The notes under the pieces were generated by a model that was not told where the DNA came from, made no database searches, and worked only from the letters and a program-made list of their open reading frames with translations. A stretch of DNA of 64,000 nucleotides from Escherichia coli (GTDB taxonomy: Bacteria > Pseudomonadota > Gammaproteobacteria > Enterobacterales > Enterobacteriaceae), in the NCBI RefSeq assembly GCF_044324785.1, contig NZ_CP172127.1; one strand, 5' to 3'. Shown here piece after piece: positions 15,392 to 16,865 of the stretch. How positions within the stretch are numbered: the stretch's first letter is position 1; the number at the start of each line of letters is the position of its first letter. The position numbers and the translations under genes are program-made.

Positions 15392-15637
15392 CTACGTAAT
15401 CAACCTGATTTGCCGAATCCCGACCATCGGCGATGATAGCCCCCGTAATGCGTGGTCCTTATTTCCGATAAGTTTACTTGAGTCTTTAGCTTCCCATTTC
15501 AGCCCACTCTCCCCTGTGTGGGCTTTTTTCATTGCTCTGACCCGTCCTGAATAGCCAAACAATGGCAATGTTCCACTTTGCAGGGATGATAATAAGGGGA
15601 TCTGATTCAGAAGAGTTTTGAAAAGTTGGACCGCCAT
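15392..15637 (-). CDS. yahM: small uncharacterized protein
   Basis: ORF 15392..15667 trimmed to ATG at 15637 gives 81 aa, the length I recall for YahM; position between yahN and yahL fits. Confidence 0.55.
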   Translation of the reverse strand: MAVQLFKTLLNQIPLLSSLQSGTLPLFGYSGRVRAMKKAHTGESGLKWEAKDSSKLIGNKDHALRGLSSPMVGIRQIRLIT

Positions 15638-16049
15638 CGAGGCCTCGAACCCCGTACCATACAACAATCCTGGTTGTCGTCTGCTCTTCCTGATGAGCTA
15701 ATGGCGGTTTTTGATATGAGCCTTACAGCATATTTTCTGTCAGGCTTGAGTGCGATGCGTAAGATACAGAAAAGACCCCACACAAACATGATGGAATTAT
15801 GATTTTTTTCATATGAATGTCAACCCACACATTCACAAAACATCTGCATGAGATCATTTTTTATACACCGTATAGCTGCGAAACCACTGCTGATGCTTTT
15901 TTAAGCGAAGTGTCGCCGATCACAACAAAATATCGGCGAAAAAAGAGATGGAATGCCAGTTGGCATACAGATATACAGATGAAATGATTACCTGCATTGC
16001 GATTCACTCTCTGGTGGAATAACAACTTGCAGGTGGAACCCTTTCTGAA

Positions 16050-16865
16050 CTAAAGAGTGTAGCGGATTTTAACGTGCTTATTTACAGGATAATATCTGTC
16101 ACCTAATTCCTGCACTCTATTAGATATCCATTCATTTAATCGCGCATCATCTCTGTATGTTTTTACGTCCAGAACAGAGAGCAATAACCTCACCAGTGAT
16201 TCAGGAAAAACAGGGTAGATATTTTTTAAGTGTAATAATAATCCATGCGCAAGCGCCTGCTTAATGGGCGCGTCGGTCTCCGGGATAGACGACATTTCGC
16301 TAAGCCACTTTTCCACATGCATACACTCTTTCCCTTTAGGGAAAAGTCTCAGCAAAGGCATATGGTGTTCAAGAAGAATACATTTGCAATCTGTTCGCAC
16401 TGAATCGATAAACTGCACTAATTTCTTAAGCCCGGTAAAGCGTCCAGCCTGCACGTTTGCTTTAATATCAAGAAACGCATCATCCTGGTCATATACCCAA
16501 ACTGTCCCTTTTTGATTTTCAAGTATGCGAAAAACAAACTTAACCGGGTGATCAGGGTAATCCATCCAGTCATAAAACCCAGGGAAATCATTAAACTGCA
16601 CATTTATGGTGAGTGCGTTATCGTCTGACCACTCACAGTCTCGTACGGCAGCCATGAGATGAATGAGTTTGTCGTCATCGACTAAATCATCACGACAATC
16701 ATAAGGATAATCATAATATTGTTTAATCAAAACCTTGAATATATCGACACAGGAGACCAGGGAGCTTTTGATATCCTCTGATAACTGATTGTTTTTAACC
16801 GTATTAAGTATGCTTTGTTGCGTATATGGCATCAAATTATTGTGCGGAGCTTTTAATGATATCAT
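16050..16865 (-). CDS. yahL: uncharacterized protein, AT-rich gene
   Basis: 271-aa ORF at the expected position with the YahL length; visibly AT-rich relative to neighbours (by eye). Confidence 0.75.
   Translation of the reverse strand: MISLKAPHNNLMPYTQQSILNTVKNNQLSEDIKSSLVSCVDIFKVLIKQYYDYPYDCRDDLVDDDKLIHLMAAVRDCEWSDDNALTINVQFNDFPGFYDWMDYPDHPVKFVFRILENQKGTVWVYDQDDAFLDIKANVQAGRFTGLKKLVQFIDSVRTDCKCILLEHHMPLLRLFPKGKECMHVEKWLSEMSSIPETDAPIKQALAHGLLLHLKNIYPVFPESLVRLLLSVLDVKTYRDDARLNEWISNRVQELGDRYYPVNKHVKIRYTL

Follow-up and report, generated by a model that had tools for sequence, protein, structure and literature searches.

The stretch of DNA analysed here (the window) comprises 64,000 nt of an Escherichia coli chromosome in reversed orientation relative to K-12, and the subject of this analysis is the orphan gene yahL together with the DNA that lies between it and yahN. 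The span 15392-16865, which is bounded by the stop end of yahM and by the yahL start codon (ATG) and matches annotated genes at both ends (Table 1), had been described in an earlier note as an AT-rich yahM-yahL block, horizontally acquired, probably silenced by H-NS and encoding two uncharacterised products. The GC content of the span (1474 bp) was found to be 41.6% compared to 50.1% for the window, which corresponds to the 8th percentile among windows of the same length (mean 50.1%, standard deviation 5.6%). The window contains 13 low-GC segments, of which the span is one and not the deepest; the lowest value at the same length was 36.7%, near position 58981. The true extent of the anomaly is a trough made up of yahL and its two spacers, with yahM lying outside. 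The spacer between yahM and yahL (15668-16049) had 41.1% GC, and the spacer on the yahK side, the most AT-rich part, contained two hairpins resembling terminators on the downstream side of yahK (16952-16938 and 16924-16910, minus strand).

Table 1. Coordinates of the features at and around yahL in the window (ORF, open reading frame; CAI, codon adaptation index; GC3, GC content at third codon positions).
Feature	Position	Strand	Description
yahL	16050-16865	-	Coding sequence, 271 aa; annotated 'protein YahL'; orphan
Presence/absence segment	16037-16871		835 bp; yahL ORF with 13 bp past the stop and 6 bp before the ATG
Low-GC trough	15601-17400		40.8% GC; merged sliding windows below 43% GC, minimum 34.6%
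yahL-yahK spacer	16866-17107		33.1% GC
Spacer, yahL stop to xtpA	15790-16049		Indel-rich between lineages
Sigma-70 promoter (predicted)	15796-15823	-	TTGACA-16-CATAAT; 11/12 matches; kept in four Escherichia lineages
xtpA ORF	15607-15789	-	60 aa; K-12 annotation (b4845); spans the yahM start
tRNA-like element	15627-15707	-	ARAGORN tRNA-Ser(GGA)-like call; cloverleaf; about 340 bp from yahL
yahM ORF	15392-15637	-	81 aa; overlies the leaderless xtpA/tRNA-like transcript; CAI 0.117
yahN intrinsic terminator	15496-15531	+	AGCCCAC...GTGGGCT then TTTTTT; alignment and fold; antisense inside the yahM ORF
yahN	14704-15375	+	49.3% GC
yahO	14282-14557	-	37.0% GC, GC3 36%
prpR	12583-14181	+	55.2% GC
prpB	11466-12356	-	56.1% GC
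yahK	17108-18157	-	53.2% GC

The composition of yahL was compared within a set of 48 non-overlapping window ORFs of at least 100 aa. The gene had 39.7% GC (50.0, 28.3 and 40.8% at the first, second and third codon positions, respectively), the third-lowest value in the set (z = -2.1), with a GC3 z score of -1.6 and a CAI of 0.205 compared to a mean of 0.291 (z = -1.3). The low GC content of yahL and its flanks relative to prpB, prpR and yahK, previously judged by eye, was thus reproduced by calculation, and sliding-window GC and CAI both place yahL outside the normal range of its neighbours. In contrast, yahM had 46.7-47.8% GC and a GC3 of 50-53%, which is not atypical. These values show that the AT-rich block is compositionally heterogeneous, the description being correct for yahL and the spacers and incorrect for yahM.

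To estimate selection, the window was compared with two sequences, the divergent E. coli allele L003 and L010, the GTDB species representative of an Escherichia lineage approximately 10% diverged from E. coli. The ratio of non-synonymous to synonymous substitution rates (dN/dS) of yahL was 0.164 and 0.166 in the two comparisons, with dS of 0.37-0.67 and as many as 66 non-synonymous and 71 synonymous changes counted, compared to dN/dS of 0.02-0.09 for neighbouring genes including yahK and yahN. The full 271-aa yahL ORF was preserved even in alleles as low as 79% identity. These findings show that yahL is a real protein-coding gene, on which purifying selection acts more weakly than on its neighbours, by a factor of 3-8. 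In the comparison with L010, dS was 0.67 for yahL, 0.68 for yahK and 0.71 for yahN (0.32-0.44 for the other neighbours), and the equality of these three values indicates that yahL has diverged in step with its flanks. The gene order in L010 is the same as in E. coli (yahK-yahL-tRNA-like-yahN-yahO-prpR), indicating that yahL predates the diversification of E. coli.

The full region was carried by 3,996 of the 5,426 complete E. coli genomes, and an identical contiguous empty junction lacking the 835-bp segment was present in 1,072 of them, including Nissle 1917. The sequence AAGAGAG, which resembles a ribosome-binding site and lies upstream of the yahL ATG, is still present in the empty site, as a deletion would predict, and because the outgroup L010 carries yahL the absence is most simply explained by a single deletion. 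Alleles of yahL within E. coli differed by up to 13% in amino-acid sequence, and all had a GC content of 36.7-39.7%. A separate feature was noted in L010 (6819-6993), where approximately 121 extra bp directly follow the yahL stop, exactly at the boundary of the 835-bp indel of E. coli.

The YahL protein was predicted to be soluble, with an isoelectric point of 5.8 and without a transmembrane segment. It has no recognisable domain, as had been stated before, since nothing above threshold was found in Pfam, NCBIfam, PADLOC, PHROGs or a PDB profile search; the best Pfam matches, SDH_protease (E = 0.0035, 16.8 bits, cut-off 31.3) and WWE_5 (E = 0.039), were sub-threshold. The structure prediction called for in the earlier note gave an AlphaFold2 model of low confidence, built on an 11-sequence alignment (mean predicted local distance difference test score 53.8, predicted template modelling score 0.57), in which low-confidence residues 1-63 are followed by a sheet of five strands and a C-terminal half made of helices. 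No informative fold match was obtained when the model was compared with BFVD by Foldseek (template modelling scores of 0.22 or less, nothing at E <= 0.001).

Homologues of YahL were found within a very narrow range. In a protein search of 5.8 billion clusters all matches came from E. coli, and when 1.84 billion representatives were scanned exhaustively with HMMER, YahL fragments and a single true distant relative (P0026) were the only matches. Among 100,044 species genomes the family was found at just two loci. No match was found in phage records, viral contigs or natural plasmids, the plasmid matches being F-prime plasmids or large chromosome-like records as judged from record size and source. 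The restriction of YahL to E. coli and Shigella has already been published (PMC11057252).

The distant relative, WP_160470546.1, is a hypothetical protein of 275 aa from rare E. coli strains and is 24-26% identical to YahL over approximately 240 aa (E = 8.9e-12), with 53 invariant alignment columns. Its gene has 31.5% GC and was absent from all 5,426 complete E. coli genomes. It lies on an island (L005 4300-16828, E. coli GCA_009799345.1) downstream of uxuR-yjiC-iraD, next to an IS256 fragment, a 1350-aa inverse-autotransporter adhesin of the Air/IatC type, a SicA-like gene resembling those of tetratricopeptide repeat chaperones and an SseC/SipB-like gene. The two genes are alike in being AT-rich and of the same length class, and they differ in locus and in the even lower GC content of the relative. 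The existence of this gene places the yahL family in an AT-rich accessory gene pool and counts against a local de novo birth of yahL. Speculatively, and on circumstantial grounds, YahL might be a type III secretion effector; this suggestion draws on the SicA/SipB-like neighbours of the paralogue and on N-terminal features, the first 30 residues of YahL being 50% S/T/N/Q/P with one acidic residue and the model being of low confidence over the first 63.

YdjO and YjfZ were published together with YahL as proteins of 264-271 aa restricted to E. coli and Shigella (PMC11057252), and their genes (35.1% and 42.4% GC, respectively) are AT-rich, as is yahL. Kinship of YahL with YdjO, YjfZ and YjiC was considered and rejected, the best BLASTP E-values being 0.36 and 2.1. 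YjfZ belongs to DUF2686 with YjiC, whereas YahL has no DUF2686 match in Pfam. Since yahL is missing from approximately 20% of complete E. coli genomes, it is not universally 'conserved'.

Between yahL and yahN lies a transcription unit whose most constant part is a tRNA-like element. The predicted sigma-70 promoter ends 7 nt before the xtpA ATG (15789), which implies a leaderless transcript, consistent with the title of the XtpA paper (Muto et al. 2022, cited in PMC10767902). The element folded as a cloverleaf at minimum free energy (-30.8 kcal/mol, z = -2.5), with a 7-bp acceptor stem, a T arm and an encoded CCA, the 3' end reading GGCGG-T-CCA. The anticodon loop CAGGAUU is non-canonical, in that position 33 is A instead of U and position 37 is U instead of a purine. 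The Rfam tRNA model RF00005 gave no match to the element, neither on 131 nt even at E <= 10 nor on 4.5 kb. The element was invariant in five lineages. Along an 86-nt run (15711-15626) no difference was seen between E. coli, L010, E. albertii and L017, another Escherichia lineage (GCA_036173185.1), compared to 75-87% identity in the surrounding columns; the probability of such an invariant run at the flanking rate was 3e-11 to 5e-6. In 5,148 E. coli records the element was at least 99% identical.

The element matched 247 lambdoid and Stx phage records at 73-85% identity. The matched position is the argN slot of the ileZ-argN-argO cluster downstream of Q, either between ileZ and argO or annotated as argN. 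The best match was phiP27 (84.9% over 82 nt, E = 1e-17), and the first 40 nt of the element were identical to the unannotated middle element of this phage. These alignments establish homology between the element and the argN lineage of lambdoid phages, with which it shares the acceptor stem, D arm, T arm, discriminator base and CCA end. Unlike the phage cluster, the copy in the chromosome is solitary, with no ileZ, argO, Q or lysis genes around it, and its anticodon arm has diverged; unlike phage argN, it is embedded in the xtpA mRNA.

Of seven E. coli-type sequences, six had an intact 60-aa xtpA ORF, and the seventh, a contig of a metagenome-assembled genome (L009), carried a frameshift. At codon 4 (15778-15789) TGG is found in E. 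coli and TAG in L010, E. albertii and L017, and a 60-aa XtpA is therefore possible only in E. coli proper. The ORF is thus not preserved genus-wide, in contrast to the tRNA-like element downstream of that codon, whose identity is 100%. As far as these alignments go, the XtpA peptide cannot explain the invariance of the phage-derived tRNA-like RNA. The far higher conservation of the RNA than of the peptide bears on how the published XtpA-GcvB effect is to be read.

The yahM ORF showed no comparable constraint. Its dN/dS was 0.68-0.97, with gaps in the alignment; it is frameshifted in Nissle and R32_14_1F (PGAP), codon 12 is a stop in L010, and L017 has lost the body of the ORF. The apparently divergent YahM homologues were rejected as frame-shifted mosaics of the same DNA from E. 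coli and Shigella only, some of them from an error-prone assembly. These findings show that yahM is probably not a conserved protein-coding gene, and it is best treated as doubtful. The yahM half would not belong to the probably foreign yahL gene. The proposal of horizontal acquisition is well supported for yahL, as an ancient event, by composition, phyletic range and polymorphism, and is unsupported for yahM, which is neither AT-rich nor conserved like a coding gene. The statement that both products are uncharacterised has become partly outdated, since K-12 xtpA now spans the yahM start and a yahM promoter, repressed by IHF, has been reported (bioRxiv 10.1101/2025.05.13.653802), which fits the predicted sigma-70 promoter.

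The intrinsic terminator of yahN is kept in E. albertii, and its position fits the published convergent yahM-yahN excludon (PMC12288877). The yahN 3' untranslated region of approximately 155 nt (15376-15531, plus strand) lies antisense within yahM and is 90-96% identical to that of the 10%-diverged lineage.

When orthologous neighbourhoods were compared, a conserved core, prpBCD-prpR-yahO-yahN, was followed by lineage-specific DNA. Past yahN, E. coli and L010 carry the tRNA-like module and then yahL-yahK, E. albertii carries the module followed directly by yahJ-yahI-yahG-yahF without yahK or yahL, and L017 carries the module followed by a Zorya type I system (6955-12633; ZorD E = 0, ZorC E = 2e-244, MotB-like ZorB). 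In Citrobacter and S. bongori unrelated genes follow, without the tRNA-like element. The yahL gene was absent at the yahN junction of E. albertii, L017, Citrobacter and S. bongori (E. fergusonii was outside this set). Synteny between the Escherichia lineages ends at approximately 15865, some 45 bp on the upstream side of the -35 hexamer of xtpA. Judging from these gene orders, the yahN/tRNA-like junction behaves as a hotspot for cargo or defence islands. It resembles tRNA-associated island hotspots in that a tRNA-type sequence bounds the core (prp-yahO-yahN) and the lineage-specific cargo. It differs from them in that the variable DNA lies on the 5' or promoter side of the tRNA-like element and not at its 3' end, and in that no integrase or att repeats were found here. 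A further variation was seen on the core side in E. albertii (L016 5163-5789), which has an extra 208-aa ORF between yahO and yahN that is absent in E. coli and had no Pfam or PADLOC match.

Taken together, the atypical composition, restricted range, polymorphism, adjacent phage relic and co-divergence with the flanks point to an ancient and not a recent acquisition. In the explanation we favour, with a probability of roughly 65% for the origin story overall, yahL would be an old orphan gene acquired from an unsampled AT-rich donor at a cargo-exchange junction beside the phage-derived tRNA-like relic. Its arrival would have preceded the split of E. coli from the approximately 10%-diverged lineage, and the gene would have been inherited vertically since then. 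Moderate purifying selection would have maintained YahL as a soluble protein while the gene retained its foreign composition, and a single clean deletion of 835 bp would account for its loss from about one in five E. coli genomes.

Several observations weigh against this explanation. A donor was not identified in the protein, species-genome, plasmid, phage or viral searches, in which homologues were confined to E. coli and close relatives. No integrase or insertion sequence element was found flanking yahL, and in the alignment with Nissle 1917 the 835-bp segment showed no direct repeats, att repeats or target-site duplication at the junction. No signal of amelioration was seen among polarised substitutions (16/14 AT-to-GC versus 18/21 GC-to-AT, small counts). 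AT-richness alone is no proof of recent transfer, since yahO is more AT-rich than yahL and yet is core, being syntenic in E. albertii, L017, Citrobacter and S. bongori. The H-NS high-affinity motif TCGATAAATT was not enriched window-wide (78 observed versus 72 expected), although two sites with one mismatch fall in yahL. Finally, Price et al. found that yahL insertions affect fitness despite trace expression (PMC5053530), which is awkward for a simply silent passenger gene.

Silencing by H-NS, the other element of the claim made for this DNA, is about evenly balanced. The yahL region combines AT-richness (33-41% GC across 15601-17400) with very low expression, the product amounting to less than 1 part per million of monomers (PMC5053530). 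A peak of genomic SELEX (systematic evolution of ligands by exponential enrichment) lies inside yahL for the sigma-28, sigma-24 and sigma-32 holoenzymes (PMC5493296), as expected of AT-rich foreign DNA rich in promoter-like sequence. From AT content, expression and these peaks, the trace expression would most likely result from xenogeneic silencing of the 33-41% GC DNA by H-NS/StpA. Like H-NS/StpA-silenced genes of E. coli and Salmonella, yahL lies 10-17 GC points under the host average, has a restricted range, is dispensable, is expressed in trace amounts and has RNA polymerase binding inside the gene. It differs from them in lacking mobility genes and in being an old resident under purifying selection instead of a recent island.

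Another possibility is that yahL is native, either fast-evolving or locally born, and that its AT-richness stems from weak selection, low expression and the universal GC-to-AT mutation bias. The dN/dS of 3-8 times that of the neighbours, the trace expression, the lack of mobility genes and the AT-rich core gene yahO would all suit a native gene, and the balanced substitution counts fit a composition at its own equilibrium. We nevertheless regard this as unlikely, because the 24%-identical relative in an unrelated and more AT-rich island shows that the family predates the locus and exists outside it, poorly adapted genes of the window keep a high GC3 (for example, the ABC permease at 18244-19200, with CAI 0.21 and GC3 0.59), a selectively constrained ORF of 271 aa is long for a de novo birth, and the site is a cargo-exchange junction of the genus.

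A doubtful variant would shift the emphasis from the gene to the RNA. The functional core of the locus would then be neither YahL nor YahM but the 86-nt tRNA-like RNA derived from phage argN, which is invariant across Escherichia while the XtpA frame is closed outside E. coli. This RNA would anchor the genus-wide hotspot for exchange of yahL-yahK, yahJIGF or Zorya, and YahL would be cargo drawn from a pool of AT-rich adhesin and type III secretion islands, such as the one carrying its relative.

The phage homology also raises the question of whether yahL came with the relic, as a moron of a decayed lambdoid prophage, in which case the stretch from yahL to the tRNA-like element would be one remnant. 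The homology of the element to the argN slot in 247 phage records speaks for such an origin, as does the position of yahL directly upstream on the same strand, and AT-rich accessory genes are common downstream of Q in lambdoid phages. It is improbable, however, given that yahL and the remaining 1.39 kb were unmatched in 50,697 phage records, PHROGs, BFVD and IMG/VR, that E. albertii and L017 have the tRNA-like module without yahL, and that synteny breaks between yahL and the element at approximately 15865.

It is very improbable that yahL is a recent, still-spreading insertion and that the yahL-less genomes represent the ancestral empty site. The precise, gene-sized indel (835 bp, with 13 and 6 bp beyond the ORF) and the empty state of approximately 20% of genomes would be expected of an insertion. 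The same site is, however, occupied in the approximately 10%-diverged lineage with a dS equal to that of the flanks, E. coli alleles are up to 13% apart in protein, there are no terminal repeats or duplications, and AAGAGAG remains in the empty site as after a deletion. That yahL and yahM are both spurious ORFs in AT-rich junk DNA is hardly credible, since what is likely for yahM (dN/dS 0.7-1.0, frameshifted, truncated or deleted in several lineages, low CAI) is already refuted for yahL by an intact 271-aa ORF with a dN/dS of 0.16.

An ancient acquisition followed by deletion would make yahL an ordinary case among AT-rich genes of narrow range and probably foreign origin, and would leave the general understanding of such genes unaltered; its orphan status is already published. 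The gene has been proposed as a universal E. coli/Shigella marker for quantitative PCR (PMC11057252). Because it is cleanly deleted in approximately 20% of complete genomes, including Nissle 1917, assays based on yahL under-count such strains.

Other features of the window were recorded alongside. A CRP site has been published in the yahN/yahO spacer (PMC4287617). Between prpR and yahO a palindromic element resembling repetitive extragenic palindromes (14157-14215, minus strand) is indel-variable between strains and gave a weak naRNA4 match (27 bits, under the gathering score). Low-GC segments that are deeper than or comparable to the one at yahL lie at 33101-34500, 40101-41500 and 56801-60700 (minimum GC 32%, 34% and 28%, respectively), and an ORF inside one of them (40465-41133) has 36.3% GC. 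Past yahK, an ABC-transporter operon (18160-22700) occupies the place where K-12 has yahJ, and homology to K-12 stops at 18315. Nissle retains a 75-bp permease relic at this site, which is a second variable junction.

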